From a virus, in IMG/VR virus record IMGVR_UViG_3300033405_000009: a stretch of DNA of 64,000 nt. The stretch is one strand, 5' to 3'. Below the pieces are notes generated by a model, which searched no databases, had not been told where the DNA came from, and saw only the letters and a program-made list of their open reading frames with translations. Positions 5,898 through 26,080 of the stretch are shown here, piece after piece (position 1 is the first letter of the stretch; every line of letters starts with the position of its first letter). The position numbers and the translations under genes were made by a program.

Positions 5898-5968
5898 CTC
5901 CGGCGCAGGGAATCGAACCCCGATTCGAAGATTCAAAGTCTTCTGTCCTGCCGTTGAACGACGCCGGA
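5898..5968 (-). tRNA. tRNA-Gln(UUG)
   Basis: acceptor pairing tccggcg/cgccgga, T-arm GGGAATCGAACCC, anticodon loop rc CTTTGAA. Confidence 0.6.
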
Positions 5969-5988
5969 ATACCGGCTACTTTACAATT

Positions 5989-6063
5989 TGGAGCCCCCTG
6001 TCAGAGTCGAACTGACCTTTCCAGTTTACAAGTCTGGTACATCGCCACCAATGTTTAGAGGGC
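5989..6063 (-). tRNA. tRNA-Thr(UGU)
   Basis: encoded CCA (TGG on plus), acceptor gccccct/agagggc with G-U, loop rc CTTGTAA. Confidence 0.5.
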
Positions 6064-6068
6064 AAATT

Positions 6069-6482
6069 TTACGGTCTTGTACGTCCAAGGATCTCGAGAG
6101 CTTCATTTACGTCAATGTCTCGAAGTCCATACTTTGAAGACACTCTGACTTGATAAGCTTCGAAGCCTGTAAGCTTGATGTCATCCAGGACGACATACCT
6201 TTCAAAAGGCCCTTTCGCCGCAATGGTCTCGAGAATACGCTTTACGCGGTTATCGTCGTAAATCGCGTAGCCCCCGAATCGGCCTTTGAACCCAGCTCTA
6301 TGAAGGCATTCTGCTGTTGTCTCCTCAGACAGTTCTAACATCCAGAGAGAATGAATATAGAAAGCCACATCAGGAGCAGCCAGCCGATTAGCGATGGTGA
6401 CTAAATCTGGATCCAAATGTCCGGGTCTAAAGTCCCCACCACGGTTCAAAACTCCGTCAAGATCTAGGAAAATAGCTTTCAT
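6069..6482 (-). CDS. HAD-superfamily hydrolase/phosphatase-like
   Basis: N-terminal FLDLDGVL (HAD motif I DxDGx) and VVLDD motif. Confidence 0.55.
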   Translation of the reverse strand: MKAIFLDLDGVLNRGGDFRPGHLDPDLVTIANRLAAPDVAFYIHSLWMLELSEETTAECLHRAGFKGRFGGYAIYDDNRVKRILETIAAKGPFERYVVLDDIKLTGFEAYQVRVSSKYGLRDIDVNEALEILGRTRP

Positions 6483-6778
6483 TTTCGCGCCGGAGTCTTC
6501 TCTCCTTGGAATTTTACGTCAAGTCCTTTAATGAACTGATCAATATCTTCTTCCTCGGGAAGATCAAACTCACCTGCCTTGATCTTACGAATCAAGACGT
6601 CTGCTTTATTCTTGATGAATTGAAGAGCTAGATCGATTCGTTTAGGATCTTTCAATTTGAGAGCATCTTCGAACTTCTCTCGAAGCAGATACCCGTCCTC
6701 AGATTCCCACACATTTTTCAGAACCGGCTCTGGACAATCGAGAGCGAGAATCTGACGGGCAATCCTATGGAAATTCAC
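6479..6778 (-). CDS. hypothetical protein
   Basis: ORF 99 aa, start overlaps upstream gene stop. Confidence 0.5.
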   Translation of the reverse strand: MNFHRIARQILALDCPEPVLKNVWESEDGYLLREKFEDALKLKDPKRIDLALQFIKNKADVLIRKIKAGEFDLPEEEDIDQFIKGLDVKFQGEKTPARK

Positions 6779-7029
6779 AATGAACAGGCCTAGAAAAACC
6801 CTAGTTTAGTAGGGTTTTGGGTGGGATCTTTACATTTTTGGGAGAAACTTCCAGATCTAGTCTCTAGCCCAGAATTCATATCTCCATCCAAAAGCGATGT
6901 TTGGATGTGTGCAAAATGCAATCAAATTATCCTATCTGGAATTGGACAACCTGTCGATCCAGAATTGAACGATTCTTTCCTATTGAAGACTGCGACACTG
7001 CAATAGTGAAATTCATCATGGAAAACTAG

Positions 7030-7114
7030 CGGAACCATCTGGAGTCGAACCAGGACCTTTTACAGCCACCTGATTAGCAGTCAGGCGTAGAGACCTCCTC
7101 TACTTATGGTTCCA
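7030..7114 (-). tRNA. tRNA-Ser(GCU), type II
   Basis: acceptor ggaacca/tggttcc, T-arm tctgg-agtcgaa-ccagg, anticodon stem cctga/tcagg, long variable arm. Confidence 0.6.
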
Positions 7115-7118
7115 TTGC

Positions 7119-7195
7119 GGCAAGAATAGGAATCGAACCCGACCTTTCGGCAGTCCTAGTTTTCGGAACTAGCGCGGATGCCTTACCGCCTTTCT
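7119..7195 (-). tRNA. tRNA-Ser(CGA)-like, imperfect T-stem
   Basis: acceptor ggcaaga/tcttgcc, anticodon stem ctagt/actag loop rc TCCGAAA; T-stem only 3/5 paired. Confidence 0.35.
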
Positions 7196-7207
7196 TGCCA
7201 AACTCTT

Positions 7208-7291
7208 GCGGATGGGGAGGGATTCGAACCCCCGGTGGGTTGTCCACGGCGATTTTCAAGACCGCTGCCTTAAGCCTCTCAGCCACCCATC
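7208..7291 (-). tRNA. tRNA-Ser(UGA), type II
   Basis: acceptor ggatggg/cccatcc, T-loop attcgaa, anticodon loop rc CTTGAAA. Confidence 0.6.
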
Positions 7292-7326
7292 CATTACGAT
7301 TCGAGAACTTGTTGAAACGATCCGGG

Positions 7327-7408
7327 CGGAGAGTAGAGGAATCGAACCTCTGACCTTTCGGTCCCCCTCGCTTTCCAAGCGAGTTACCAACCTTCAGTGG
7401 TACTCTCC
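7327..7408 (-). tRNA. tRNA-Ser(GGA), type II
   Basis: acceptor ggagagt/actctcc, T-arm agagg-aatcgaa-cctct, loop rc TTGGAAA. Confidence 0.65.
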
Positions 7409-7784
7409 ATTAACTCATCATTACGAAAAAAACCAAACAACCTCGATTTCGACATTCATGCCAGTCGCGTCCATGTTGACAGATTTTGCCCTGTCTCATC
7501 AACATTTGTTGACAGTTAGAGCATCGTCTGAGAGTTCGCTGTTTAGGCTTGCACCAATAGTCCCTATTACAGTTCTTGCATTTACGTTTGCAAGACTTGG
7601 TGCAAGACTTCTTCGTCGCAGTTCGGGAGATCACGTACGTTATGAGGATGTTCTGCGGCTTCATGAATGGTGCGAGAAATACCGCACCGTTTACAGGTCC
7701 AAGTCCACCATTCAAAATTATTAGCTTTTGGTGGGTTGGTCCAATCGTGCGTTCGCGCGTTATGCCATTCTTTACTTAGCTCCA

Positions 7785-7861
7785 TTGGTCGGAATGGCCG
7801 GACTCGAACCGACGACCCTCTGTCCCCCAGACAGATGCGCTACCAGACTGCGCCACATTCC
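7785..7861 (-). tRNA. tRNA-Pro(GGG)
   Basis: CCA encoded, acceptor cggaatg/cattccg, loop rc CTGGGGG. Confidence 0.5.
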
Positions 7862-7896
7862 GATTGATGGCCCGTATGCCGCCGGGCCCACGCGGA

Positions 7897-8415
7897 TTAG
7901 GACACGCTCTGTCCGAGCCATGAAGCCCAGTCAGGGTGTGCCGTGCGAGGATCGATTCTGGCCGAAGATAACGGCAGGGACTTCGGCTTCACCGGCCTCG
8001 AGAGCAGCCTCATGCCGGCCTCTTCCGGGGTCCGGTCGCGCTTACGCTCGTTGCAGCCGTAGCAAGACGTCACGATGTTCTCCCAGACCGTCTTGCCGCC
8101 CTGCTTGCGCGGGACCACATGGTCGTAGTTGAGCTCGTGCGCTTCCTTGTGAGAACCGCAGTATTGACACCGAAACCCGTCCCTCGTGAGGACGTTCAGG
8201 CGCGAGAACTTGACTGCACGCTTGACGCTGTTGATGACTCTCTTGAGTCGCACGACGGCCGGCATCTTCATGCTGACAGACGGCGAGCAAATGGTTTCAT
8301 CGTACTCCTGCAGAACCTCCACGTCGCCCGTGTAGAGCATCGTGATTGCCTTCTGCCAAGGCACGACCTTATGCGGAGCGCACCAGGGAGTGAGGAGGAG
8401 CGTCTGCGTGTTCAT
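7897..8415 (-). CDS. HNH homing endonuclease
   Basis: YDHVVPRKQGGKTVWENIVTSCYGCNERK HNH motif. Confidence 0.7.
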   Translation of the reverse strand: MNTQTLLLTPWCAPHKVVPWQKAITMLYTGDVEVLQEYDETICSPSVSMKMPAVVRLKRVINSVKRAVKFSRLNVLTRDGFRCQYCGSHKEAHELNYDHVVPRKQGGKTVWENIVTSCYGCNERKRDRTPEEAGMRLLSRPVKPKSLPLSSARIDPRTAHPDWASWLGQSVS

Positions 8416-9227: not shown

Positions 9228-9242
9228 GTGATGAAACTCAGT

Positions 9243-9320
9243 AGGCCCGAGGGGACTCGAACCCCCAAAGGAACGGATTTTAAGTCCGCAAGCTGTGCCA
9301 TTTGCTACTATCCCACAGGC
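9243..9320 (-). tRNA. tRNA-Leu(UAA)-like (acceptor pairing unresolved)
   Basis: T-arm agggg-actcgaa-ccccc, anticodon stem gcgga/tccgt loop rc CTTAAAA; 5' acceptor partner not found. Confidence 0.35.
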
Positions 9321-9338
9321 CCATGCAGAACTCTACAG

Positions 9339-9420
9339 TGTCGACGAGAGGAATCGAACCTCCACGGTTGTTAACCACAAGCACCTCAAGCTTGAGCGGC
9401 TGCCATTACGCCACGTCGAC
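9339..9420 (-). tRNA. tRNA-Leu(GAG), type II
   Basis: acceptor gtcgacg/cgtcgac, anticodon stem caagc/gcttg loop rc TTGAGGT. Confidence 0.55.
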
Positions 9421-9434
9421 GTGAACTTCTCAGT

Positions 9435-9467
9435 CCGACAGATGGGACTCGAACCCACAACTTCTAG
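9435..9467 (-). other. orphan tRNA 3' fragment (T-arm plus acceptor 3' strand only)
   Basis: atggg-actcgaa-cccac T-arm with no room for 5' half before next tRNA. Confidence 0.35.
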
Positions 9468-10358: not shown

Positions 10359-10392
10359 CTAGCTCACCGGGGCATAGTACAGGACGTGGGGA
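10309..10392 (-). tRNA. tRNA-Leu(UAG), type II
   Basis: CCA encoded, acceptor accccgg/ccggggc, loop rc CTTAGAA. Confidence 0.55.
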
Positions 10393-10396
10393 TCGA

Positions 10397-10469
10397 ACCC
10401 ACCAAAACTGGTCTGTCGAACCAGCGTGTTCACCAGCTCACTCGTCCTGCATGATTTTGTGGGACCAGA
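10397..10469 (-). tRNA. tRNA-Val(GAC)
   Basis: T-arm gtggg-gatcgaa-cccac, anticodon stem ctggt/accag loop rc TCGACAG; paralog of 10841-10916. Confidence 0.5.
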
Positions 10470-10478: not shown

Positions 10479-10551
10479 ACCTTCACCAACTCAGATATCA
10501 GCCGAGTGAGGGCAACCAGCCCGTGTAGTCCCGAACGGTGGGGAGACCGGG
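10479..10551 (-). tRNA. tRNA-Ile(GAU)
   Basis: T-arm gaagg-gatcgaa-ccttc, loop rc CTGATAT. Confidence 0.5.
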
Positions 10552-10557
10552 AATCGA

Positions 10558-10629
10558 ACCCGGATTCCATGCTTATCAGACATGGGTACTAACCGTTATA
10601 CGATCTCCCCGAAACTTTAGGACTCGAGG
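10558..10629 (-). tRNA. tRNA (anticodon GAU-like)
   Basis: acceptor ggggaga/tctcccc, perfect T-arm ccggg-aatcgaa-cccgg. Confidence 0.5.
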
Positions 10630-10841: not shown

Positions 10842-10916
10842 TGGTACAGGACGTGGGGATCGAACCCACCGAAACTGCTGTGTGAAAGCAGCGTGTTCAC
10901 CAGCTCACTCGTCCTG
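10841..10916 (-). tRNA. tRNA-Val(CAC)
   Basis: CCA encoded, near-identical to 10397-10469 except anticodon arm; loop rc TTCACAC. Confidence 0.55.
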
Positions 10917-10918
10917 CA

Positions 10919-12473: not shown

Positions 12474-12480
12474 GAATTGG

Positions 12481-12551
12481 ATGCGGCCCTCGGAGTCGAA
12501 CCGAGCTGATCGAGCTTATGAGACTAGATCGACGTCCCCGTCTGCGCCGCA
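12481..12551 (-). tRNA. tRNA (CAU anticodon, weaker anticodon stem)
   Basis: perfect T-arm ctcgg-agtcgaa-ccgag; acceptor 6/7. Confidence 0.4.
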
Positions 12552-12555
12552 CAAG

Positions 12556-12626
12556 TGCCTCTAGGAGGAGTCGAACCTCCCACGTCCGGCTTCGAAGGCC
12601 AGCGTCTGCATTCCGTCAGTAGAGGC
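12556..12626 (-). tRNA. tRNA-Arg(UCG)
   Basis: acceptor gcctcta/tagaggc, T-arm ggagg-agtcgaa-cctcc, loop rc CTTCGAA. Confidence 0.6.
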
Positions 12627-12706: not shown

Positions 12707-12707
12707 G

Positions 12708-12774
12708 TGCCTCCAGCAGGATTCGAACCTGCAAACCAACCTTCGGAGGGTCGGGTCTGTCCATCAGTGAAGGC
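12708..12774 (-). tRNA. tRNA-Arg(CCG)
   Basis: T-arm gcagg-attcgaa-cctgc, loop rc CTCCGAA; short D-arm. Confidence 0.45.
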
Positions 12775-13298: not shown

Positions 13299-13727
13299 TT
13301 ACTTTCGAAAATGAGTGCGAATCTTGTGACAGTTGGCACAAACAACATCGCATTTCTGGATTTCTGCTCTGATCATTTCTAGTGCTTTGAGGCTATGAGC
13401 GGCAATTTCACTCACACAAGAAGTCTTCGTAGTTGGATCTCGATGATCAAATTCCATGATATACGAAGGAAAAACCCCTTTACAGTCATGGCACGGTTTG
13501 TTTTTTGCTTCTTCACGAAGCCTTGATGCTTCGATTCTTAAACTAGTATTTCTTTCTTTGACAGCAGATTTTTGCTGAGTTTTATTGGCCTCATACCAAA
13601 ATTCATTGTAGGTTCTTTTGCATGCACGACATCGACTCTGCCGTGTTCCTTTTGTCTTAGACTTCCAAGCAAAATCTGTATCTTTTTTCTTATTACCGCA
13701 TTTTAGGCAAACGCGCATTCTAAACAA
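13299..13727 (-). CDS. HNH homing endonuclease
   Basis: CHDCKG...HxxxR...CANCH zinc-binding HNH pattern; paralog of 17683-18114. Confidence 0.65.
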   Translation of the reverse strand: MFRMRVCLKCGNKKKDTDFAWKSKTKGTRQSRCRACKRTYNEFWYEANKTQQKSAVKERNTSLRIEASRLREEAKNKPCHDCKGVFPSYIMEFDHRDPTTKTSCVSEIAAHSLKALEMIRAEIQKCDVVCANCHKIRTHFRK

Positions 13728-14191: not shown

Positions 14192-14273
14192 TGGAGAGGT
14201 TGTCGTGAGTCGAACACGGACTTGTCGCCATCGGTTTTGCAGACCGAACCCAGATACCGTCTGGTACAACCTC
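14192..14273 (-). tRNA. tRNA-Cys(GCA)-like (long variable region)
   Basis: CCA encoded, acceptor gaggttg/caacctc, loop rc CTGCAAA. Confidence 0.45.
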
Positions 14274-14451: not shown

Positions 14452-15048
14452 TTACACTCTGAGAGCTGCTTCTACCGAAGAGAGATAAACTTGATGGTAA
14501 CGATGGTCTCCATATGGAAGACCAGCCCCTCCAACTAGCTGTCCATTTTGAGCCTTGAGACTCCAATCTTTCCCGTTCCGAATGGTGTGAAGAGCGGCCA
14601 TCGAGTCCATGTGATGGACCCAACGCAAAACAGCGTAGCCAAACGCTGGACTTCTCGAACCACCCATTTGACAATGGACGTAAATCGGACCGAGGCCGAT
14701 CATCATCTTCGCAAAACTAACTGCATGCCTTACGGTATCCACATTGAATGGAGTTCCGTCATCCGGCACGCGACACTCAGAAAGATTGGGAATGCCTTTC
14801 CCCTCGTCTGAATGTTCAGTTTCTACGTTCAGAACCGAACGAATCCCGAAATCTTTCGCCAAATGCTCCCAATCCGTTTGATCGCAAATTGAGCCCCCGA
14901 TCATGAGATCTGGTGTCACCCACCACCTTTGAACCGGGTGGTTCGGATCGGGAGCGTAAACGCGATTGGTGTAAACTTCGGCCATTCCCATGTGGGACTT
15001 TACTGGAGCAGGAAGGCGCGGATCGAACGCGCGTTTCTCTGGGGGCAC
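14452..15048 (-). CDS. dual-specificity / protein-tyrosine phosphatase-like
   Basis: active-site signature VHCQMGGSRS (HC-X5-R); true start probably at internal Met ~14985. Confidence 0.55.
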   Translation of the reverse strand: MPPEKRAFDPRLPAPVKSHMGMAEVYTNRVYAPDPNHPVQRWWVTPDLMIGGSICDQTDWEHLAKDFGIRSVLNVETEHSDEGKGIPNLSECRVPDDGTPFNVDTVRHAVSFAKMMIGLGPIYVHCQMGGSRSPAFGYAVLRWVHHMDSMAALHTIRNGKDWSLKAQNGQLVGGAGLPYGDHRYHQVYLSSVEAALRV

Positions 15049-16155: not shown

Positions 16156-16596
16156 TCAAACTTGAACGGTCGCAATCAGCCTGCGTTTGGCAGTCACACG
16201 TCTATGACAGTTAGCACAACGGATTTCGCATTTGGCGATTTCTTTCTCGATTTTCCAAATCCTAAAACCACAACCAACCATTCTTGATATGTCACAAATC
16301 TTATCACCTTTTACGTGATCAAAGTCTAAAACTACGGGGTCATTCTCACCGCAATCCACACATGCTCGTTCAGATAAAACTTTTTGAACGTAATCCTTAG
16401 CTTGTTGGATCGCCCTATTGCGGATGGGCTTCATTCGATCGTAAACTGAAATTGGATTATTTTGATTTCGCAACCGAATTCGCTCTCTTACGCATGATTT
16501 GCAATCAGGTCTTAGTTTCCCATCCATTTTTGCAGGATGCAAGAAACTAAATTCCGCTTCAGCTAATACTTTTTGGCATTTTGTACATTTCTTCAT
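16156..16596 (-). CDS. HNH homing endonuclease
   Basis: CVDCGEND...DHVKGDK...CANCH. Confidence 0.65.
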   Translation of the reverse strand: MKKCTKCQKVLAEAEFSFLHPAKMDGKLRPDCKSCVRERIRLRNQNNPISVYDRMKPIRNRAIQQAKDYVQKVLSERACVDCGENDPVVLDFDHVKGDKICDISRMVGCGFRIWKIEKEIAKCEIRCANCHRRVTAKRRLIATVQV

Positions 16597-16628: not shown

Positions 16629-16697
16629 AGAGCGGATGGCGGGCATCGAACCCGCACGGCACGGCTTGGAAGGCCGGCTGACTGCCAAAGTCGCATC
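16628..16697 (-). tRNA. tRNA-Gly(UCC)
   Basis: acceptor gcggatg/catccgc, T-arm gcggg-catcgaa-cccgc, loop rc CTTCCAA. Confidence 0.55.
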
Positions 16698-16725
16698 CGC
16701 GTTCCCCACACCATACTTGGTGACT

Positions 16726-17335: not shown

Positions 17336-17459
17336 CATTCGTGGAGTTTACGGAACTCGAATCCGTATCTGCGCCTTTTCTGACGCTGCTCTACCTTCAC
17401 ATTTGAACCCGGGCCCAGACTCAAACGTGCGACTTTCGCCTTGAGCTAAAACCCCGCAG

Positions 17460-17619: not shown

Positions 17620-17692
17620 TGGAGTTGACCGGGAACGATCCGGCAACCTCGAGCTTGCAAAGCTCGCGCTCTCCCGATTGAGCTACAACCCC
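17620..17692 (-). tRNA. tRNA-Ala(UGC), non-canonical T-loop
   Basis: RNA reads GGGGTTG-TAGCTCAATCGGGAGAGC-CGAGC TTTGCAA GCTCG; T-loop ATCGTTC. Confidence 0.55.
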
Positions 17693-18114
17693 GTTTTGGT
17701 CATTTGTCGATGGTACGTTCTATCTGCATGACAATTAGCGCAAACTACCTCACATTTTTGGATTTCTGCCAAAACCACTTCTTCAGAATGTTTCCATATT
17801 TCATTAATGGTGCCCATTTTGACTGTTCCAGGCAAGTGGTCAAATTGCATACGCCAGTACGGGTGAATTAGTCTACAGTCGGCACAAGGTTTATTCTTGG
17901 CTTCTCGGACCATTTCTTTTAATTTTTGTTCTCGGGTTTTAGAGTGTTCTCTACTCTGAGAAATATGTTTTCTACGATTAGAAGGATTAGAATACCATTC
18001 TGACCAATATATCTTTTGGCAATCACGACAGACGCTGCTATATCCTGCTTTCTTTTTATTGAAAGAATCCGTAGATTTTGTCTCTCCGCATTTAGAACAA
18101 AATTTCTTCTCCAT
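17683..18114 (-). CDS. HNH homing endonuclease
   Basis: CADCRLIHPYWRMQFDH...CANCH; paralog of 13299-13727. Confidence 0.65.
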   Translation of the reverse strand: MEKKFCSKCGETKSTDSFNKKKAGYSSVCRDCQKIYWSEWYSNPSNRRKHISQSREHSKTREQKLKEMVREAKNKPCADCRLIHPYWRMQFDHLPGTVKMGTINEIWKHSEEVVLAEIQKCEVVCANCHADRTYHRQMTKTGL

Positions 18115-18598: not shown

Positions 18599-18669
18599 TG
18601 GACCGCCGGGGAATCGAACCCCGATCCCTCCCGTGCGAGGGGAGTGTACGCCCGTTGTACTAGCAGCCC
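18599..18669 (-). tRNA. tRNA-Ala(CGC)
   Basis: acceptor GGGCTGC/GCGGTCC with G-U pairs, D-stem GTAC/GTAC, anticodon stem CTCCC/GGGAG loop CTCGCAC, T-arm CGGGG TTCGATT CCCCG. Confidence 0.55.
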
Positions 18670-19185
18670 GTTTCGAATAAGTGGAGTAGATGTGTAAGCC
18701 GGGTTCTGTCGAGGACGATCATTCATCTAGGCTCGGCATTGCTGACGAGCTCAAGCAGCACACCCGAGAGCATCGGTCGGGCAAACCGCTCTCTGTTGGC
18801 CTTGCTCCAGGTGAGGTTTAGCGCAGTTTACATCACTGCAAACTGGGCAGGGTCTTACTCCTGCCTTTGCACCCTTACCACGGTCGAAACCGTGGCGGTT
18901 TTCTTTCTGTTCCACTTTCTGTCGGATCACTCCGCCTGGTCGTTAACCAGCACCCTGCCCTGTGGAGCCCGGACTTTCCTCTCGCCTTTCGGCCAGCGAT
19001 CGTCTCATCTACTCCGAAGATTGGTGGTACTCACTTGATTCTGCAGAATCTTTACACCCTCAAGAGGCCGTTACGGGAATCCTCCTTTTGGTGAAGGGCG
19101 ACAAGTGATCATGATCGAACGGATCTCTCCGCCCGCGCCATTTCCTTGCTGAGTACCGTCCCTAAGCAGTTTCGAACCTGCTCGG

Positions 19186-19253
19186 CACGCCCGGAAGGAA
19201 TCGAACCCTCATCCGGAGTTTTGGAGGCTCCGTTGGCACCTTGCCTCGGACGT
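19186..19253 (-). tRNA. tRNA-Trp(CCA)-like
   Basis: T-arm gaagg-aatcgaa-ccctc, loop rc CTCCAAA. Confidence 0.4.
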
Positions 19254-19319
19254 ATGGTGAGATGGGAATGATGAACGAGGGACCTAGAAATCAGGTCGTC
19301 ATTCCCATTCACATCTCAG

Positions 19320-19391
19320 CGCCCACGAAGGGAGTCGAACCCTCCTCACTGGCGTGACAAGCCAGCCGCCTCACCGGATGCGTACGCGGGC
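19320..19391 (-). tRNA. tRNA-Asp(GUC) copy 1
   Basis: anticodon stem ctggc/gccag loop rc TTGTCAC; paralog of 21175-21246. Confidence 0.55.
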
Positions 19392-19926: not shown

Positions 19927-21123
19927 TCACTCGACGCTGACGATGACGCCCGCGCCGACAGTCTTGCTACCCTCACGAACAGCGAACCTCATTCCAGGCT
20001 CGAGTCCGATCGGAACCATCAACTCCAGCGAGACCTGTGCGTGATCTCCAGGGTTGATCATCTTGTTTTCGCCGAAACTCGTCACCGTTCCGGTGACGTC
20101 AGTCGTGCCGAAGAAGAATTGAGGTCTGTATCCCGGGAAGATCGGCGTGTGCCGACCACCCTCTTCTTTCGGAATCACGAATAGCTCCGCGAGAGCTTTT
20201 GCGTGAGGTTGTACGGAGCCGGGAGCGATGAGCACCTGACCACGAACTACCTCATCACGAGCCACTCCTCTGAGGAGAAGCCCACAGTTTTCGCCCGCGC
20301 GAGCCTCCACTTGATCCTTGTGGAACATCTGGATGCTCGTGACCACGACTTGACGAGGCTTGGAGTCTGCCTCTATCAATCCGACAATCTCGACGGGGGA
20401 CCCAGCCTTGAGGACACCACGCTCGATGCGACCCGTGACGACAGTGCCGCGACCAGGGATCGTGTGTACGCCTTCAATGGGCATCATGAACGGCGCGTCG
20501 TAATCTCGCTTCGGATCGGGAAAATGCTGGTCCATTGCGGCAACCAGCTCTGTGATGCAAGCCCCATCCACCGCGGGATTTCGGAGCGCCTTGAGCGCCG
20601 ATCCCTTGACCACCGGACAGTCTTTGTAGCCGTGCAGCTCCAAACGCTCGATCGTCTCCATGACGACAAGATCCAGAAGCTCAGGATCGGAGATGTCCAC
20701 TTTGTTGATGAACACTACGATTCTCTGAACCCCGACCTGACGAGCAAGCAGAATGTGCTCTTTCGTCTGATACTGAGGTCCTTGGCTACCGTCCACCAAG
20801 AGCACGGCCCCGTCCATTTGGGCGGCGCCAGTGATCATGTTCTTGATGTAGTCCGCGTGTCCAGGACAGTCGATATGCGCATAATGCCTAGTAGCACTCT
20901 CGTATTCGACATGGGACACGTTGATGGTCACCGTCTTCGACTCGTCTCGGACCGTGCCGCCCTTGGCGATATCCGCGTAGCTCTTGATCTTCGCGAGCTT
21001 CGCATGCGCTTGTACGGCCAGAAGAGCCGCCGTCAGCGTAGTCTTGCCATGGTCGACGTGTCCGATAGTCCCAACATTCACGTGCTGCTTCGTCACTGTG
21101 CCTTCGCCTCGGGTTGCCAGCCC
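19927..21123 (-). CDS. tuf: translation elongation factor Tu (bacterial type)
   Basis: [15 protein letters not shown]-loop, [12 protein letters not shown] motifs; ORF-track N-terminal extension to 21204 overlaps tRNA-Asp so start is probably non-ATG near 21123. Confidence 0.8.
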
Positions 21124-21174
21124 TTCTTCTCCTTGTAGTGCCCCGTCAGAAGTGTTCTGACTCCAGGGGCTCAG

Positions 21175-21246
21175 CGCTCTCGACCGGAATCGAACCGGCC
21201 TCATCGGCGTGACAAGCCGACTGCCTCACCAGATGCATACGAAAGC
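21175..21246 (-). tRNA. tRNA-Asp(GUC) copy 2
   Basis: T-arm accgg-aatcgaa-ccggc, anticodon arm near-identical to copy 1. Confidence 0.5.
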
Positions 21247-22046: not shown

Positions 22047-22061
22047 TCAAGACTTTACGGA

Positions 22062-22085
22062 GTGACGTACGGGAGTTGAACCCGC
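22062..22085 (-). other. orphan tRNA T-arm fragment
   Basis: acggg-agttgaa-cccgc without acceptor partner. Confidence 0.25.
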
Positions 22086-22137
22086 CTTCGCTGATTCACA
22101 GTCAGCCCCATTCCCACGACTGGCAACGCCACCATAA

Positions 22138-22743
22138 TCACTGCGAACTAAGAGATTTGCAACAACGAAAGCCGGTTTCGTAGAACCGGAAAGAAGGATG
22201 GTGCGCGTCGTTTGACTGACCGCACGAAGTTTTCTTCGCCCAAAATCCGCCTTTGAGCGTGTATGGATGATCTCGACCGTCACGGGAGACCACCCATTCT
22301 TCAACGCTTCCGAGGAGATCGTAAACCCCATCAGGGTTTTTGCATTGCGGCCAAGACCCAGAAGGCTGTCCTTGCCAAATGCGTCGAACTTCTCGTTTTG
22401 TTGCGTCTTTTGAAGCACTTGGAAAGAAAGCTTCTTCTTTCCATTCGAGCCACCGTCTGATGTTGAGACATGGACCTTGAGTAGGCTCACAAGCCGCGTC
22501 CCACTCATCTTCAGTGCATAGTCTCTTTTCTCGAGCCTCACACCATTTTTTCCCATCCATTGCGGATTGCATCACCATCGGATTCAGACCCTCAACGTTC
22601 GGGGCCTCGAATCTGTCCATGCAAACTCCGTGAGTCAACACCATGTCCTGAGGACAAACTGGTGAGAATTCCAGGAGAAGGAATGTGATGTAGATGAAGA
22701 CCGTCATTGTACGCATCCTACAGTGCGTCGACATGTCTGGCAA
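22138..22743 (-). CDS. secreted FGE/SUMF1-like (formylglycine-generating enzyme family) protein
   Basis: N-terminal hydrophobic signal-like segment; C-terminal ...RFYETGFRCCKS resembling FGE-sulfatase domain end. Confidence 0.4.
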   Translation of the reverse strand: MPDMSTHCRMRTMTVFIYITFLLLEFSPVCPQDMVLTHGVCMDRFEAPNVEGLNPMVMQSAMDGKKWCEAREKRLCTEDEWDAACEPTQGPCLNIRRWLEWKEEAFFPSASKDATKREVRRIWQGQPSGSWPQCKNPDGVYDLLGSVEEWVVSRDGRDHPYTLKGGFWAKKTSCGQSNDAHHPSFRFYETGFRCCKSLSSQ

Positions 22744-22938
22744 GCGGATGAAGAAGTCGAACAGACTTCATTCGGTGTGATCAAGGTGTTCGAATGCGCG
22801 GAATGTCGGAGTCGCGTTCACTTGAATGCTGTCGCCCATAAGAAGGACGATAGTGAACCGAACGAATTCGACTTGGATTTTTACGACGTTCCTTACGACT
22901 GCGAAGAGGCAATCGTAAAATTCATCATGGAAAATTAG
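22723..22938 (+). CDS. hypothetical protein (C-term KFIMEN)
   Basis: ORF 71 aa. Confidence 0.35.
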   Translation: MRRHVWQADEEVEQTSFGVIKVFECAECRSRVHLNAVAHKKDDSEPNEFDLDFYDVPYDCEEAIVKFIMEN

Positions 22939-23012
22939 TCGGGGCGACTGGAATCGAACCAGCGATCTCAAGCACCCAAAGCTCGCGCACTACCAAACTG
23001 TGCTACGCCCCG
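22939..23012 (-). tRNA. tRNA-Pro(UGG)
   Basis: acceptor cggggcg/cgccccg, loop rc TTTGGGT. Confidence 0.55.
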
Positions 23013-23105
23013 AAAATTTTGATCACGCCCGAGTGTGAAAGCCGGTGACTTGTGTCAGCTTTTCTGGCTGTTGCCTTTACCATTTGGCTACTCCCCCGTA
23101 AAAGT

Positions 23106-23165
23106 GGAGGAGGTTGGATTCGAACCAACAATTGCGTGTAGGCTTACAAGGGTGGGCGCGATCAG
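23106..23165 (-). other. tRNA-like 3' element (T-arm gttgg-attcgaa-ccaac) lacking 5' acceptor partner; paralog at 23566-23634
   Basis: two similar copies each followed by an intact tRNA. Confidence 0.3.
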
Positions 23166-23240: not shown

Positions 23241-23565
23241 GTTACAACTGCATGAGACGAAGTGCTGCTTCTGCGGCCTCACGTGAAGTGCAGAGAGCGT
23301 AAAACTGAAGAAGACCACCATAAGCGTTGAAAGTCGGGAGATGTTCCTTCCTCTCGGCCTTTCGGTCGGTCTCGGCTACTCCGAATTTCCAACCAGAAAA
23401 GGAAGGACTGACGATTTGATCGAAAGGCGAGTGAACGACTTCCTGAACATTCACGACTTGCAGCATGATGGCTCCAAAAGGTTAGATAGCGCCCGAGTGA
23501 GAAAGCAGTTGCTTTTGCTAGCTTGGATGGCTAGTGTCCTGACCTCTAGACGACTCGGCCATATT

Positions 23566-23634
23566 GGAGGCCGAGGTTGGATTCGAACCAACGTTACTTA
23601 TGCTTGTGTGCTTTGCTCGAGTGGGCGTTATCGG
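23566..23634 (-). other. tRNA-like 3' element, paralog of 23106-23165
   Basis: acceptor-like ggccgag pairs upstream (ctcggcc 23555-23561) forming hairpin rather than acceptor. Confidence 0.3.
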
Positions 23635-23794: not shown

Positions 23795-23926
23795 GGGGGA
23801 CTTCCGGAGTCGAACCGGATGCTTGTGGGGATTGCTGGATGGCCCCTTTCAGGGCCGAGGTGCAATACCTAACTGCCTTGCGGCCTAGAGTGTGAGTCTA
23901 GTTGGGCGCCGTGCCCAAAAGTCCCC
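23795..23926 (-). ncRNA. long tRNA-like RNA A (~132 nt): tRNA frame with ~60-nt insert between anticodon-like arm and T-arm
   Basis: acceptor ggggact/agtcccc, T-arm tccgg-agtcgaa-ccgga; insert has GCAA-tetraloop hairpin and second hairpin with compensatory changes across copies. Confidence 0.5.
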
Positions 23927-24027
23927 GTAACTTTTCCTTTACTCTTTCGAGTCAGCCACTTATGGGCAGCTGATCGAAATTTACGCTTGGCTTGACGCCT
24001 CGCGGCCATGTTTCGCATGGAATTCAT

Positions 24028-24170
24028 TGGAGAGGGATCTTGGAGTCGAACCAAGTATGCTTGTGGGTACTACTGAGTGGCTCCGTGAGGAGCCGAGTTG
24101 TAATACCGGAACGCCTTGCGGCGCCAGTTTTACTGACTGGTAGGCGGCCGTCGCCCATATCCCTCATGTG
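24028..24170 (-). ncRNA. long tRNA-like RNA B
   Basis: acceptor gagggat/atccctc, T-arm cttgg-agtcgaa-ccaag, conserved gcttgtggg...ccgag...gccttgcggc blocks. Confidence 0.5.
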
Positions 24171-24210
24171 TTTTGTGAAAGTTTAAGGCAGCCGAGTTGT
24201 AGTGCTGTTT

Positions 24211-24285
24211 TTGGTGCAAAAGGTCGGATTTGAACCGACCAGTGTTTCCGTTCCGGGGAAATGCTCCACCTAGGAGCATCTTTTG
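24211..24285 (-). tRNA. tRNA (anticodon loop CCGGAAC, identity uncertain)
   Basis: CCA encoded, acceptor gcaaaag/cttttgc, perfect T-arm gtcgg-atttgaa-ccgac. Confidence 0.45.
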
Positions 24286-24317
24286 CGTGTTAGCACTACG
24301 GGTTGGCTGCCTTGGCG

Positions 24318-24462
24318 GGGATCCCTGGATTCGAACCAGGATTGCTTGTGGGAACCGCTTGGTGGTCCCTTTCAGGACCGAGTTGCGATGCCGGACTGTC
24401 TTGCGACACAGTTTAACCAACTGTTGAGCTGCCATTGCTCAAGATCCCCAAAATTGTGGCAC
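24318..24462 (-). ncRNA. long tRNA-like RNA C
   Basis: T-arm ccctggattcgaaccagg; acceptor ggggatc/gatcccc; same conserved insert. Confidence 0.45.
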
Positions 24463-24490
24463 CCGAGTTGTGATGCTGATTTTTGCAAGA

Positions 24491-24562
24491 GCGAGTTTCG
24501 AATTCGCCCCTTCGGTTTAGCAGACCGACGTTCCACCTAGGAACATCTTGCGTGTAAGCATC
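24491..24562 (-). tRNA. tRNA (anticodon GCU-like, type I length)
   Basis: T-arm gcgag-tttcgaa-ttcgc, anticodon stem tcggt/accga. Confidence 0.4.
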
Positions 24563-24580
24563 ACTGATTGGGTGCCTCAG

Positions 24581-24651
24581 AGCCGCCGAGTGGAGTCGAA
24601 CCACCCTCACCGCATTACGAAAGCGGGGTTCTCCCAGAGAACTACGACGGC
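24581..24651 (-). tRNA. tRNA-Thr(CGU)
   Basis: T-arm agtgg-agtcgaa-ccacc, loop rc TTCGTAA. Confidence 0.45.
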
Positions 24652-24767
24652 GTGAAGTGCTCCATTACACTCACCATGGCACTCCCTATGAGTTAGGTGA
24701 CTATAACGGTTGGGTTGCACTTACCCGATTAAGGCGGCCTGATTCGAAGTCAGAACCTTAACCACGG

Positions 24768-24904
24768 TCGAGGAGCCAGGAGTCGAACCTGGATTTTTGC
24801 TTGTAGGAACTGCTGGTTGGCTCTTTTCAGAGCCGAGTGGCAATGCCGGCTGCGCCTTTCGGCTAGCTCCCTTTGCTAGTGGGGGACCGACCCCCTATCT
24901 CCTC
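24768..24904 (-). ncRNA. long tRNA-like RNA D
   Basis: acceptor cgaggag/ctcctcg, T-arm ccagg-agtcgaa-cctgg, conserved insert. Confidence 0.5.
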
Positions 24905-25055
24905 GTTCTATCGATCTCTACATTCGACGAGTTCCAGTTTACGGAACTCATCAGCGTCTCAGGTAGGTAACGATCCTACTTTCTCTCGCTTAACAGGCGA
25001 GTGCTATTCCATATTAGCTTCTGAGACAATGAACTTTTGTTAACAAGTTCTTGTT

Positions 25056-25496
25056 ATGAGAACTTGTAAGAAGTGTGGAAACTCTATTCCTCGGTACACC
25101 GAGGTGGACGGTAAACAAGTTTCGCTCACTAACAGGACCCTGTGTTTGGGGTGCAGTTCGCTTAAAAAGCCACGTTCTTTTCCAAACTTAAAACGTCAAA
25201 AGAATATGATACTCGTTACCGCTTATCGTCAGAAAACGAAACAGAAGGCTGTAGAAACTAAAGGAGGTAAGTGCGAAATCTGTGGATATGACCGTTGCAT
25301 TTCTGCACTTATCTTCCACCATCGCGACCCATCTACCAAGTCTTTCTCCATCAATGATGGTAGAACTCGAAGGTGGGAGATAGTTGAAAACGAGATCGTT
25401 AAATGCGCACTCCTTTGTCACAATTGCCATTCCGAAGTCCACGCGGGACTTATTCAGCTCCAGGGGAAGGACTCGAACCTCCAGCCTCTTGGTTAA
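25056..25496 (+). CDS. HNH homing endonuclease
   Basis: CEICGYDRC...FHHRDP...CHNCH. Confidence 0.65.
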   Translation: MRTCKKCGNSIPRYTEVDGKQVSLTNRTLCLGCSSLKKPRSFPNLKRQKNMILVTAYRQKTKQKAVETKGGKCEICGYDRCISALIFHHRDPSTKSFSINDGRTRRWEIVENEIVKCALLCHNCHSEVHAGLIQLQGKDSNLQPLG

Positions 25497-25531
25497 CAGC
25501 CAAGCCATGGTACCCATACCAAAACCCTGGA
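25458..25531 (-). tRNA. tRNA-Asn(GUU)
   Basis: acceptor tccaggg/ccctgga, anticodon stem cttgg/ccaag loop rc CTGTTAA; overlaps 3' end of HNH ORF. Confidence 0.55.
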
Positions 25532-25677
25532 ACGAAAGTGGAACTCCGTGATCCGTACCACGGAGTTCCCTCGCGCGAAGGCTTTTCGGTGACTTCCAGC
25601 CACACTACTGCGCCCTCTCTATCGCTCTGCGTAGATTGTCAGAGAACTGGACCCTTCACGTTTGAGGGGCCGTTCGG

Positions 25678-25744
25678 CTGAGACGGAAGGATTCGAACCT
25701 TCTTCGACGGAATCAGAAACCGTCTTATCACCTTGAGCATCTCA
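25678..25744 (-). tRNA. short tRNA, anticodon ambiguous
   Basis: perfect T-arm gaagg-attcgaa-ccttc, acceptor 6/7. Confidence 0.35.
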
Positions 25745-25757
25745 ATGTTTGTCTTCG

Positions 25758-25829
25758 TGAGCCCTGAAGGAATCGAACCTTCTACACGCGGCTTAAGAGA
25801 CCGCTGTTCTACCAGTGAACTAAGGGCCC
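25758..25829 (-). tRNA. tRNA-Lys(CUU)
   Basis: T-arm gaagg-aatcgaa-ccttc, loop rc CTCTTAA. Confidence 0.55.
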
Positions 25830-25860
25830 GCTTTTGTTTTGAGGCTGGGGTTTGCCTCAG

Positions 25861-25932
25861 TGAGCCCTGAAGGAATCGAACCTTCTGCGCGCGGCTTAAA
25901 AGACCACCGTTCTACCAGTGAACTAAGGGCCC
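25861..25932 (-). tRNA. tRNA-Lys(UUU)
   Basis: paralog of 25758-25829, loop rc CTTTTAA. Confidence 0.55.
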
Positions 25933-25992
25933 CCTTTCTTTGTTTTTGGCCCCTGTTTGAGGGGCTTGGTCTTGCGTTTCATCTGTGACTCC

Positions 25993-26080
25993 AGTGTGGG
26001 CGATAGGATTCGAACCTACTCAGGCTTATTGGCGTTGCGGGCGGGTTACAGCCGCTTGAGCTCTCCAGGGCTCAGCACCC
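25993..26080 (-). tRNA. tRNA-Tyr(GUA), type II
   Basis: T-loop attcgaa, D-arm gagc-cctggaga-gctc, loop rc CTGTAAC. Confidence 0.5.

Follow-up and report, generated by a model that had tools for sequence, protein, structure and literature searches.

A putative RNase P RNA gene inside the tRNA array of a probable huge phage

The 64,000 nucleotides of viral DNA analysed here (IMG/VR record IMGVR_UViG_3300033405_000009; hereafter the window, meaning the whole of this 64-kb stretch) carry, between positions 5895 and 26082, an array of about 58 tRNA or tRNA-like genes that all run in a single direction. The same interval holds a gene for a bacterial-type RNase P RNA, a gene for the elongation factor EF-Tu, about ten small open reading frames (ORFs) and four long tRNA-like RNAs. 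We consider it probable that this interval is the translation island of a huge phage, and that its RNase P RNA is functional and maintained by the phage. Arrays accompanied by EF-Tu are already known for huge phages, and the array alone is one more example; the added component would be a tRNA-processing ribozyme, which we did not find reported for viruses.

The ribozyme gene lies in the middle of the array:

18679..19015, minus: bacterial type-A RNase P RNA, 337 nt, full length; Rfam RF00010

The match to the Rfam model covers model positions 1-367 and scores 287.6 bits (E = 5.8e-93), where the gathering score is 100. In the cmscan alignment, both strands of helix P4, GAGGAAAGUCCGGGCUCC and ACAGAACCCGGCUUA, as well as J5/15 (GGAGCAAGG) and J18/2 (CCUAGAUGAAUGA), are identical to the consensus, and most of these positions are invariant columns over 16 copies of RNase P RNA. 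The loops read CGGGUG for L15, which thus has the GGU motif, GUGA for L9, GUAAGA for L14 and GCAA for L18. In RNase P RNAs, the GGU of L15 pairs with the RCCA at the 3' end of the substrate, and the tetraloops of L9, L14 and L18 make tertiary contacts. The molecule is compact, with 337 nucleotides for a model of 367 positions: P3, P12 and P16-17 are shortened. It is separated by 168 nt from the upstream Trp-like tRNA, and by 9 nt from the downstream tRNA-Ala(CGC). The locus is not an assembly chimera: two further metagenome assemblies, from samples 3300033402 and 3300034091, contain at 100% identity a 5,170-bp segment that runs over the EF-Tu gene, a tRNA-Asp, the RNase P RNA and the Ala tRNAs.

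The array itself was delimited with two tools. With default settings, ARAGORN predicts 43 tRNAs, all of them on the minus strand from 5895 to 25932; the 44 kb of the window outside this interval yield no prediction. The Rfam tRNA model RF00005 gives 39 matches with default filters and, with permissive filters, 44 matches at or above its gathering score of 29 bits. The two tools share 38 genes and their union is 49: five genes come from ARAGORN only (at 10459, 12478, 12707, 14192 and 16630) and six from Rfam only (at 9147, 9242, 12633, 16105, 17342 and 24483). Nine extra cloverleaf candidates, under both thresholds, were obtained by hand parsing, relaxed ARAGORN settings or minimum free energy (MFE) folding. 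An initial annotation, based on the letters of the sequence, had counted about 53 genes; this agrees well enough with the present figure, and the automated finders, at 43 for ARAGORN and 44 for Rfam, do not fall far below it. That annotation had not recorded the RNase P RNA, the EF-Tu gene or the long tRNA-like RNAs, although they make up the more unusual part of the interval. With 49 to 58 genes in 20.2 kb, the density is 2.4-2.9 tRNA genes per kb: by number and by density, the array falls within the definition of a prokaryotic tRNA array unit, which asks for 20 or more tRNA genes and a density of at least 2 per kb (PMC4758250). Compared by megablast with 50,697 GenBank phage records, its DNA yields short tRNA matches of 60-70 nt only. 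The genes are the following, with the evidence for each (z is the folding energy relative to shuffled sequence):

5895..5968, minus: tRNA-Gln(UUG), CCA encoded; ARAGORN, Rfam 56.7 bits
5989..6063, minus: tRNA-Thr(UGU), CCA encoded; ARAGORN, Rfam 40.2 bits
7029..7113, minus: tRNA-Ser(GCU), class II; ARAGORN, Rfam 42.1 bits
7117..7199, minus: tRNA-Ser(CGA), weak, C33; relaxed ARAGORN, Rfam tRNA-Sec model 28 bits, MFE class II cloverleaf
7208..7292, minus: tRNA-Ser(UGA); ARAGORN, Rfam 49.8 bits
7324..7409, minus: tRNA-Ser(GGA); ARAGORN, Rfam 31.8 bits
7786..7862, minus: tRNA-Pro(GGG); ARAGORN, Rfam 61.4 bits
9144..9227, minus: tRNA-Leu(CAA), short variable loop, enlarged D region; Rfam 30.4 bits, relaxed ARAGORN, repeat family D8
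9240..9322, minus: tRNA-Leu(UAA), paralogue of the preceding gene; Rfam 36.0 bits, relaxed ARAGORN, family D8
9338..9420, minus: tRNA-Leu(GAG), class II; ARAGORN, Rfam 47.7 bits
9467..9552, minus: tRNA-Leu(GAG), class II; ARAGORN, Rfam 57.3 bits
10001..10076, minus: class I tRNA, anticodon CAG (Leu codon), without long variable arm; ARAGORN, Rfam 53.7 bits
10290..10375, minus: tRNA-Leu(UAG), weak, CCA encoded; 77% identity to Leu-UAA (family D8), MFE cloverleaf with loop CUUAGAA
10377..10450, minus: tRNA-Val(GAC), C33; ARAGORN, Rfam 38.8 bits
10459..10532, minus: tRNA-Ile(GAU); ARAGORN default only
10537..10610, minus: tRNA-Ile(GAU); ARAGORN, Rfam 62.4 bits
10842..10917, minus: tRNA-Val(CAC), duplicate of Val-GAC (89% identity); ARAGORN, Rfam 43 bits
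11144..11219, minus: tRNA-Val(UAC); ARAGORN, Rfam 65.7 bits
11473..11547, minus: tRNA-Pro(CGG); ARAGORN, Rfam 67.6 bits
11745..11816, minus: tRNA with anticodon CAU, weak (Met or Ile2); relaxed ARAGORN, MFE cloverleaf
12478..12551, minus: tRNA with anticodon CAU; ARAGORN default only
12555..12626, minus: tRNA-Arg(UCG), weak; hand parse with loop CUUCGAA, MFE cloverleaf z -2.8, Rfam tRNA-Sec model 25.7 bits
12629..12706, minus: tRNA with anticodon CAU, GGG/CCC anticodon stem, initiator-like; Rfam 33.7 bits, relaxed ARAGORN
12707..12774, minus: tRNA-Arg(CCG); ARAGORN default, Rfam 27.7 bits
13018..13093, minus: tRNA-Arg(ACG); ARAGORN, Rfam 48.7 bits
13223..13297, minus: tRNA-Glu(CUC); ARAGORN, Rfam 55.1 bits
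13798..13869, minus: tRNA-Glu(CUC); ARAGORN, Rfam 48.8 bits
13928..14002, minus: tRNA-Arg(GCG), weak, C33, CCA encoded; MFE cloverleaf z -2.3 with loop UCGCGAA
14061..14130, minus: tRNA-Arg(UCU), doubtful, atypical T loop; relaxed ARAGORN, MFE fold not a cloverleaf
14192..14273, minus: tRNA-Cys(GCA), 82 nt, unusually long variable region; ARAGORN default, Rfam tRNA-Sec model 35.9 bits
14375..14450, minus: tRNA-Gly(CCC); ARAGORN, Rfam 41.8 bits
15479..15552, minus: tRNA-Gly(GCC); ARAGORN, Rfam 58.1 bits
16105..16173, minus: tRNA-Gly(UCC), atypical D arm; Rfam 29.0 bits, MFE z -2.9
16630..16700, minus: tRNA-Gly(UCC); ARAGORN default, Rfam 28.6 bits
16729..16803, minus: tRNA-Thr(GGU); ARAGORN, Rfam 51.3 bits
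17459..17530, minus: tRNA-Gln(UUG); ARAGORN, Rfam 51.8 bits
17619..17692, minus: tRNA-Ala(UGC); ARAGORN, Rfam 61.5 bits
18211..18282, minus: tRNA-Gln(CUG); ARAGORN, Rfam 54.3 bits
18374..18448, minus: tRNA-Ala(GGC); ARAGORN, Rfam 45.2 bits
18598..18669, minus: tRNA-Ala(CGC), 9 nt downstream of the RNase P RNA; ARAGORN, Rfam 51.9 bits
19184..19253, minus: tRNA-Trp(CCA)-like, weak, A1:U72, G73, CCA, 9-nt loop CCUCCAAAA; MFE perfect cloverleaf, ARAGORN relaxed with introns
19319..19391, minus: tRNA-Asp(GUC); ARAGORN, Rfam 45.9 bits
21174..21246, minus: tRNA-Asp(GUC), 77 nt upstream of the EF-Tu gene; ARAGORN, Rfam 47.2 bits
21335..21419, minus: 85-nt tRNA, anticodon CCU (Arg codon), long variable arm, class II-like; ARAGORN, Rfam 60.4 bits
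22059..22132, minus: tRNA-His(GUG), encoded G-1; ARAGORN, Rfam 40.7 bits, leader sequence
22938..23012, minus: tRNA-Pro(UGG); ARAGORN, Rfam 63 bits
23165..23240, minus: tRNA-Phe(GAA); ARAGORN, Rfam 29.9 bits
23633..23706, minus: tRNA-Glu(UUC); ARAGORN, Rfam 58.6 bits
24212..24286, minus: class I tRNA, anticodon GGA (Ser codon), without long variable arm; ARAGORN, Rfam 40.8 bits
24483..24552, minus: class I tRNA, anticodon GCU (Ser codon); Rfam 39.0 bits, relaxed ARAGORN
24580..24651, minus: tRNA-Thr(CGU); ARAGORN, Rfam 46.4 bits
24954..25027, minus: tRNA-Asn(GUU); ARAGORN, Rfam 52.4 bits
25457..25531, minus: tRNA-Asn(GUU); ARAGORN, Rfam 32.6 bits
25676..25745, minus: weak tRNA-like element, CUG in a 9-nt loop UUUCUGAUU; Rfam 26 bits, relaxed ARAGORN, MFE
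25757..25829, minus: tRNA-Lys(CUU); ARAGORN, Rfam 62.5 bits
25860..25932, minus: tRNA-Lys(UUU), 93% identity to Lys-CUU; ARAGORN, Rfam 58.6 bits
25994..26082, minus: tRNA-Tyr(GUA), class II, weak; relaxed ARAGORN, Rfam tRNA-Sec model 34 bits, MFE

The relaxed and intron modes of ARAGORN also return many spurious calls, with kilobase-long introns or as mirror images on the plus strand; among these are 14282-14376, 15607-15700, 22299-22388 and 17070-17141, the last rejected as a tRNA on an MFE fold that is not a cloverleaf. The relaxed mode mislabels Leu-UAG, Arg-GCG and Arg-UCG as 'His-atg', 'Thr-ggt' and 'Phe-gaa'. The 'tmRNA*' call of the same program at 18057-18690 is an artefact, being permuted and overlapping three good tRNAs: with Rfam, no tmRNA is above threshold in the window, and a 16.6-bit fragment elsewhere is the only trace.

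The resulting set of tRNAs is nearly complete, as first annotated: triplets with G34, U34 and C34 are present for all eight four-codon boxes, and 19-20 amino acids are covered. Each of the isoacceptor sets that had been read by hand is recovered; Leu-UAG, Arg-GCG and Arg-UCG are seen only when parsed by hand or folded by MFE. The suspicion that a His tRNA was missing does not hold, since tRNA-His(GUG), with the encoded G-1 of bacterial type, is found at 22059-22132; the element at 25678-25744, a candidate left undecided at that stage, has a CUG anticodon and an Rfam score of just 26 bits. Trp is represented only by the atypical candidate at 19184-19253, which has a 9-nt loop and tRNA-Trp identity marks and whose folding energy is no better than that of shuffled sequence (z -0.64). 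With wobble, the set reads nearly all the sense codons used by the phage, if one of the CAU tRNAs is an Ile2 tRNA, with lysidine, that reads AUA. The codon usage of the phage is flat, with a GC content at third positions of 0.52. The CCA end is encoded in 17 of the 58 genes and lacking in about 70% of them; some 22 genes have N73-C-U-R instead.

Local duplication with change of anticodon, also put forward in the initial annotation, accounts for some of these families. It applies to the Lys genes, with 93% identity between Lys-CUU and Lys-UUU, to the Val genes, and to Leu-CAA, Leu-UAA and Leu-UAG, which form a paralogous trio within an 84-nt repeat family (D8); the other isoacceptor pairs are just 70-77% alike. 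Val-GAC (10377-10450) and Val-CAC (10842-10917) had been described as identical apart from the anticodon arm, and this is mostly so: they match at 68 of 74 positions, with an identity of 89%, and their differences in the anticodon stem include a compensatory swap from C-G to G-C, but one base of the variable loop and the 3' tail differ too.

In most genes of the array the anticodon loop is 7 nt long and has U33, and the class agrees with the anticodon; those with C33, with 9-nt loops or with mismatched class depart from this. C33 replaces U33 in Val-GAC, Ser-CGA and Arg-GCG. In bacteria, the long variable arm belongs to Leu, Ser and Tyr tRNAs only; here, class I bodies carry the anticodons CAG (10001), GGA (24212) and GCU (24483), and bodies with a long variable region carry CCU (21335) and GCA (14192). 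These mismatched tRNAs could reflect anticodon shifts, altered identity or pseudogenes. Orphan segments consisting of a T arm and a 3' acceptor strand, at 9429-9463, 23100-23164 and 23560-23632 on the minus strand, come straight after intact tRNAs; they are tRNA 3' halves or remnants of the family of long RNAs described below. Finally, the spacer from the CUG candidate (25676-25745) to the Asn tRNA (25457-25531) contains, at 25540-25569 on the minus strand, a perfect 13-bp hairpin, GGAACTCCGTGGT ACGG ATCACGGAGTTCC, with a weak T tract after it; this hairpin may act in termination or in processing.

Five RNAs of the array are longer than any tRNA in the list above, and four of them, E1 to E4, belong to one family:

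17342..17455, minus: 114-nt tRNA-Ala-like RNA (identity marks G3:U70, A73), D loop interrupted by a 14-bp hairpin, anticodon loop of 6 nt; Rfam tRNA model 36.3 bits, MFE z -3.55
23795..23926, minus: E1, tRNA-like RNA whose variable arm is replaced by about 65 nt of structured insertion; repeat family D6, structure, covariation
24028..24165, minus: E2, same family, CCA encoded; repeat family D6, structure, covariation
24313..24449, minus: E3, same family, CCA encoded; repeat family D6, structure, covariation
24766..24902, minus: E4, same family; repeat family D6, structure, covariation

Each of E1 to E4 is about 135 nt long and has acceptor, D and T arms together with an anticodon-like hairpin, whose loop is diverse and mostly non-canonical (A33 or G33). 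Between this hairpin and the T arm comes a conserved insertion of about 55-65 nt, made of a GNRA hairpin, a long-range helix around a second hairpin, and then CCYACAAGC. Further copies occur in relatives of the window: 5-6 in L007 (7489-8391), 3-5 in L001 (5628-7020) and 2 in L039 (5616-6319), for a length range of about 125-140 nt over the family. Over 14 copies, 94.6% of the cells of the alignment pair, versus 41-61% when the partners are slid, and 19 of the 24 pairs show changes on both sides; none of 500 shuffles reaches the observed values. E1 to E4 have no match in Rfam at E-values up to 1. The 'introns' of 50-58 nt that ARAGORN calls in intron mode at 23795-24449 are really the insertion after the anticodon arm. 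Related arrays contain other structured RNAs: a group I intron in L007 (6329-6559, 76.6 bits), and tmRNAs of 97-124 bits in L002 (18255-18609), L105 (4074-4409) and L106 (7997-8332).

With so many irregular members, much of the array might serve some purpose other than decoding: its genes would be decoys or spare parts opposed to host anticodon nucleases, or pseudogenes, and the RNase P RNA would only process the excess. The C33 and 9-nt loops fit this idea, as do the class I bodies with Leu or Ser anticodons, the class II-like bodies with Arg or Cys anticodons, the remnants of tRNA 3' halves and the variable loops of the four long tRNA-like RNAs; an RtcB ligase and a HAD_SAK_2 domain of RNA repair are encoded nearby. 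However, 38 genes score well in both tools, in a tidy and complete G/U/C34 set covering nearly all phage codons. Since isoacceptor sets so regular are what decoding needs, we favour a decoding role, and think it unlikely that a substantial fraction of the genes has another one.

At least 14 other IMG/VR contigs, 31-463 kb in length, have a type-A RNase P RNA in the same setting, within an array of tRNAs on the same strand. These RNAs were found by motif scans, followed by Rfam or profile search:

L002, contig of 252 kb: RNase P RNA, 263 Rfam bits
L083, 463 kb: 208 bits; 9 nt from upstream tRNA, 6 nt to downstream tRNA
L084, 169 kb: below the Rfam gathering score; partial nhmmer match at the locus end, E = 1.5e-12
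L085, 155 kb: 108 bits (sequence stops at the locus end)
L087, 162 kb: 280 bits; 1 nt from upstream tRNA, 0 nt to downstream tRNA
L090, 101 kb: 209 bits; 9 nt from upstream tRNA, 6 nt to downstream tRNA
L092, 363 kb: 300 bits
L100, 190 kb: 261 bits; 0 nt from upstream tRNA, 61 nt to downstream tRNA
L101, 31 kb: 253 bits
L105, 94 kb: 262 bits; 160 nt from upstream tRNA, 1 nt to downstream tRNA
L106, 103 kb: 259 bits
L111, 74 kb: 167 bits
L144, 205 kb: 167 bits; 8 nt from upstream tRNA, 0 nt to downstream tRNA
L155, 170 kb: 155 bits; 1 nt from upstream tRNA

These copies usually lie 0-15 nt from a flanking tRNA; two further contigs, of 372 and 497 kb, have an RNase P RNA with few tRNAs nearby. 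Pfam scans of the neighbours of the RNase P RNAs on the other viral contigs were uninformative on virion genes, and the identification of L083 with a 462-kb GenBank phage was rejected. Applied to eight viral-contig copies, RNAalifold predicts 87 pairs, 54 of which show compensatory changes, on both sides. Some copies are strongly reduced, to about 280-325 nt with scores of 155-209 bits (L083, L090, L082, L111, L144 and L155), and parts of the specificity domain seem to be missing from them in the alignment.

These comparisons bear on whether the ribozyme gene is a mere passenger, recently captured from a host and now unused or decaying. Its presence is patchy, the nearest relative of the window seems to lack it, and the tRNA regions of phages are hot spots for insertions and homing endonucleases. 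However, the copy in the window is full length, with all conserved core elements intact. It is only 54-72% identical to the other viral-contig copies, the nearest being at 72%, and a search of 185,579 species genomes of bacteria and archaea for two of its helix sequences, of 26 nt each, gave no exact match. In the GenBank phage collection, the best match to the window copy, at about 69% identity, is on bacterial-looking records. The copies on at least 14 viral contigs hold their fold through compensatory changes and keep their position between tRNAs, which argues for long retention under selection. A recent capture thus appears distinctly unlikely.

All the GenBank phage records that match the RNase P RNA or its P4 motif by blastn look like bacterial DNA: a Salmonella whole-genome shotgun contig, 'Acinetobacter phage MD-2021a', faecal 'Bacteriophage sp.' contigs and Microcystis phage MaAM05. 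The last of these (L172; GenBank MW495066.1, 'Microcystis phage MaAM05', 109323-121348) is annotated as a jumbo phage and has fliM, fabI, engB, mtgA and glyS around its RNase P-like motif, a bacterial-looking context.

The EF-Tu gene of the island is divergent:

19927..21096, minus: EF-Tu, 389 aa, GTG start; Pfam GTP_EFTU, D2 and D3; identical to P0001

The three Pfam domains are matched with E-values of 8.7e-51 (GTP_EFTU), 2.9e-20 (D2) and 1.9e-28 (D3), the motifs G1-G5 are intact, SAL included, and residues 2-386 align with solved EF-Tu structures, the best at E = 1.7e-139. Its identity to bacterial EF-Tu is about 53%. In switch I the protein has KTVTI where bacterial EF-Tu has RGITI, the motif at which Lit protease cleaves in E. 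coli; this substitution is compatible with a possible escape from defences that target EF-Tu. The translation is 100% identical to a JGI metagenome protein, and the longest contig with an identical EF-Tu is 98 kb long. More than 100 metagenomic clusters, many on contigs of 100-530 kb, are 78-88% identical to it, and the gene is found in relatives at about 30-370 nt from at least one same-strand tRNA. In the window, the tRNA-Asp at 21174-21246 ends 77 nt ahead of the start codon.

The relatives of this EF-Tu in IMG/VR are on viral contigs of 250-620 kb, and the closer ones have the gene within same-strand tRNA arrays. Such contigs are the closest relatives of the window, which bears out the initial remark that a repertoire of this size is a trait of the largest phages. 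One of them, of 436 kb, provides the best match both for EF-Tu (88%) and for a second protein of the window, related to the major vault protein (MVP):

30674..33232, plus: protein of 852 aa with the shoulder and repeat domains of the major vault protein; Pfam E 9.6e-30, 68% to the 436-kb contig

Since the MVP-like gene and the EF-Tu gene keep a similar spacing and relative orientation, the window is syntenic with this contig. Among GenBank phages, only two huge phages of Al-Shayeb et al., of 735 kb and 462 kb, have a match to the MVP-like protein, and in them the regions beside the gene have no tRNAs and no RNase P RNA; homologues are also present on 13 IMG/VR contigs. Most of the other ORFs of the window have no known relatives. 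The window very probably comes from an uncultivated huge phage.

Assuming instead that the segment is not from a phage, it would be a tRNA array unit of a bacterial chromosome, a megaplasmid or another large element, and its rnpB and tuf would be ordinary cellular genes. Bacteria and plasmids do carry arrays of 20-43 tRNAs (PMC4758250, PMC8421152), large putative plasmids have similar sets of translation genes (Al-Shayeb et al., PMC7162821), and no capsid or terminase gene was found in the window. However, the EF-Tu gene is both divergent and outside of any str or tufB ribosomal context. The neighbours are small genes without relatives, HNH and endonuclease VII genes, a collagen-type protein resembling tail fibres, and members of PHROG families. 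To these are added the synteny with the 436-kb viral contig, an MVP-like protein that matches only curated huge phages in GenBank, and the RNase P RNA helices without exact match in the species genomes. Gene content and synteny thus indicate a huge phage, and residence on a bacterial chromosome or plasmid is very unlikely.

How such an island might work can be proposed from the layout of its genes. Promoters resembling those of sigma-70 are not enriched in the array (8 found, 13.4 expected), many of the spacers between tRNAs are 0-30 nt long, and the stop codon of at least one ORF, at 10919-10921, abuts the 5' end of the Val-CAC tRNA; because of these three observations, we propose that the island would be transcribed as long precursors mixing tRNAs and mRNAs. 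RNase P would then cleave each precursor at more than 50 sites, one at each tRNA 5' end. The nucleotide at position -1 is a U in 29 of 56 tRNA genes of the array, a frequency that resembles that of E. coli pre-tRNAs, with about 60% of U at this position, linked to A248 of the ribozyme (PMC6582537); we count this resemblance in favour of the proposal. The phage ribozyme RNA would add to the capacity of the host or replace it, presumably by pairing with the host protein RnpA. For bacterial RNase P, reconstitution from heterologous RNA and protein is established.

Since the 3' end of the ribozyme lies 9 nt ahead of tRNA-Ala(CGC), the ribozyme would itself be released by tRNA processing, its own 3' end being produced by the RNase P cut at this tRNA. 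With about 70% of the tRNAs devoid of an encoded CCA, a CCA-adding enzyme would be needed to finish them. EF-Tu would be released from a position similar to that of tufB, and would deliver the charged tRNAs. In the tufB operon of E. coli, thrU-tyrU-glyT-thrT-tufB, the tRNAs are directly upstream of the EF-Tu gene and on the same strand; given this likeness, with tRNA genes directly upstream, the 5' end of the tuf mRNA would be set by tRNA processing. There is a difference in that the EF-Tu gene of the window is flanked by tRNAs on both sides, in an array of more than 50 genes, and encodes a divergent protein. Cleaved tRNAs may be repaired by RtcB (36487-37725) together with the HAD_SAK_2 protein. 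On balance, the phage would be supplied with tRNAs largely without recourse to the host, which would help where host tRNAs run low or are cut in the course of infection. The need of the phage for such a supply is speculative: it may answer a very high load of pre-tRNAs, a shut-off of the host, or host anticodon nucleases.

That the phage RNA acts instead against the host, by titrating RnpA or through an altered specificity that favours phage precursors, is highly improbable and pure inference: the many phage pre-tRNAs without CCA and with unusual features would fit, and the phage RNA would compete for host RnpA given that no rnpA was found in the window, but L15 GGU, J5/15 and P4 are those of the bacterial consensus and, with substrate-binding elements identical to it, nothing suggests a changed specificity.

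Several observations weigh against the proposal of a functional ribozyme in a huge-phage translation island. Nine of the 58 tRNAs are weak, and the non-canonical ones, with C33, 9-nt loops or class mismatch, may be pseudogenes. The closest relative, the 436-kb contig whose EF-Tu is 88% identical, lacks any RNase P RNA up to 10 kb from EF-Tu and has no P4 motif along its entire length, so that the RNase P RNA is dispensable for the lineage. Capsid, portal and terminase genes were not found in the 64-kb window, and consequently it is homology to viral contigs, and synteny with them, that supports the assignment to a phage; for scale, the longest contig with an identical EF-Tu has 98 kb and other relatives have 250-620 kb. 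Finally, a search for rnpA found no PF00825 match in 113 concatenated ORFs of the window, nor in 10 ORFs scanned singly, a search that covers only 64 kb of the genome.

Taken together, the data suggest a wider proposition, for which we see about even chances: some huge phages would encode their own RNase P ribozyme, the first in viruses, partly self-released from tRNA-punctuated precursors and freeing tRNA maturation from the host rnpB, and the same arrays would contain tRNA-like RNAs of a class not described before, with a covarying domain of two helices where the variable arm would be.

The other protein genes in and around the array are as follows:

6069..6482, minus: ORF of 137 aa with a HAD_SAK_2 domain (HAD phosphatase of RNA repair proteins); Pfam PF18143, E 7.6e-10, concatenated ORFs
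7897..8415, minus: HNH endonuclease ORF, 172 aa; Pfam HNH_5 E 6e-13, HNH E 4e-12
13299..13727, minus: ORF of 142 aa with CxxC...DH...CANCH, HNH-like by motif, the first of three paralogues; translation, repeat family D15, no Pfam match
14452..15048, minus: ORF of 198 aa, weakly similar to dual-specificity phosphatases; Pfam DSPc E 0.002, under the curated cut-off
16156..16596, minus: HNH-like paralogue, 146 aa; translation, repeat analysis
17683..18114, minus: HNH-like paralogue, 143 aa; translation, repeat analysis
22138..22743, minus: ORF of 201 aa with an FGE-sulfatase domain; Pfam E 3.4e-10, gene call also in L107
26138..26560, minus: endonuclease VII-like ORF at the upstream edge of the array; Pfam PF02945, E 6e-18
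36487..37725, minus: RtcB RNA ligase, 10 kb upstream of the array; Pfam RtcB E 1.6e-123, PHROG 1075

Matches of other ORFs of the window are to DNA ligase, DUF6011, a collagen-type protein resembling tail fibres, and PHROG 6452. Ten mid-sized ORFs compared with PHROG gave one match, and a 554-aa ORF has no relative in phage records or IMG/VR by a pattern method.

The motif ATGGAGTCATGA occurs at 37 sites of the window with at most 2 mismatches, for 7.2 expected, and none of 100 shuffles reaches 37. Examples are 10919-10930, 41150-41161, 41675-41686, 61435-61446 and 63682-63693 on the minus strand, and 53298-53309 and 53525-53536 on the plus strand. About half of the sites are exactly at the 3' ends of listed ORFs, and dozens of small proteins therefore end in (V/I)(M/L)ES. 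Several of the sites have a TGA stop that shares nucleotides with the ATG of the following ORF, with GGAG 2 nt upstream. The motif may be a signal of gene junction or of translational coupling.

We now turn to known systems. Xanthomonas phage XacN1 has 56 tRNAs (PMC5852040), and metagenomic huge phages have up to 67, together with EF-G, EF-Tu, EF-Ts and tmRNA (PMC7162821). The window resembles the arrays of huge and jumbo phages in having tens of tRNAs for all or nearly all amino acids in one region, along with a phage-encoded EF-Tu; it differs from them in having a ribozyme gene inside the array, and no DNA similarity with GenBank phages beyond the short tRNA matches. RNase P RNA is not mentioned in PMC5852040 or PMC7162821, or in two reviews of jumbo phages, and a genomics paper on mycobacterial tRNAs and non-coding RNAs from Kirsebom's group describes none that is encoded by a phage or virus. 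A full-text search of the literature found no description of an RNase P RNA encoded by a phage or virus; as its coverage is incomplete, there may be an earlier description.

With bacterial rnpB of type A, such as M1 RNA of E. coli, the gene of the window shares the fold and all conserved core sequences. Unlike it, the gene is on a viral contig, is compact, lies between tRNA genes rather than between its own promoter and terminator, and has no rnpA found nearby. The tRNA clusters of T4 and T5 are transcribed as polycistronic precursors, as proposed here, with homing endonuclease genes between the tRNAs, and are processed by the RNase P of the host; where those phages rely wholly on the host ribozyme, the phage of the window would carry an RNase P RNA of its own. 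A parallel may exist in organelles: rnpB is kept in jakobid mitochondria and in the plastids of glaucophytes and red algae (PMC3590771, PMC6330054). There, as would be the case here, a reduced and dependent genome encodes an RNase P RNA along with its own tRNAs and tmRNA, and the protein partners are external. However, organelle genes are vertical relics of endosymbionts, whereas the phage gene, with its patchy and diverse copies, looks like an accessory gain in some lineages. Another large structured RNA is found amid horizontally moving tRNA arrays, namely GOLLD, a non-coding RNA of the tRNA arrays of Mycobacterium and of phages (cited in PMC9569102; PMC6582537). GOLLD has no known activity, in contrast with the RNA of the window, which belongs to a ribozyme family of defined function; E1 to E4, for their part, match no Rfam family.

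If the proposed reading is true, the translation genes of viruses extend from tRNAs, synthetases and factors to the biogenesis of tRNAs, and a virus is added to the few dependent genomes with an RNase P RNA of their own, which are otherwise those of organelles. The compact and reduced variants on viral contigs, of about 280-340 nt, would be natural experiments on the minimal size of type-A RNase P RNA. For the study of new tRNA biology in the conflict between phages and hosts, leads are offered by the tRNAs with non-canonical features and by E1 to E4. Finally, the tight succession of tRNA, ribozyme and tRNA suggests a self-processing design, which may be of interest for synthetic tRNA arrays and minimal cells.

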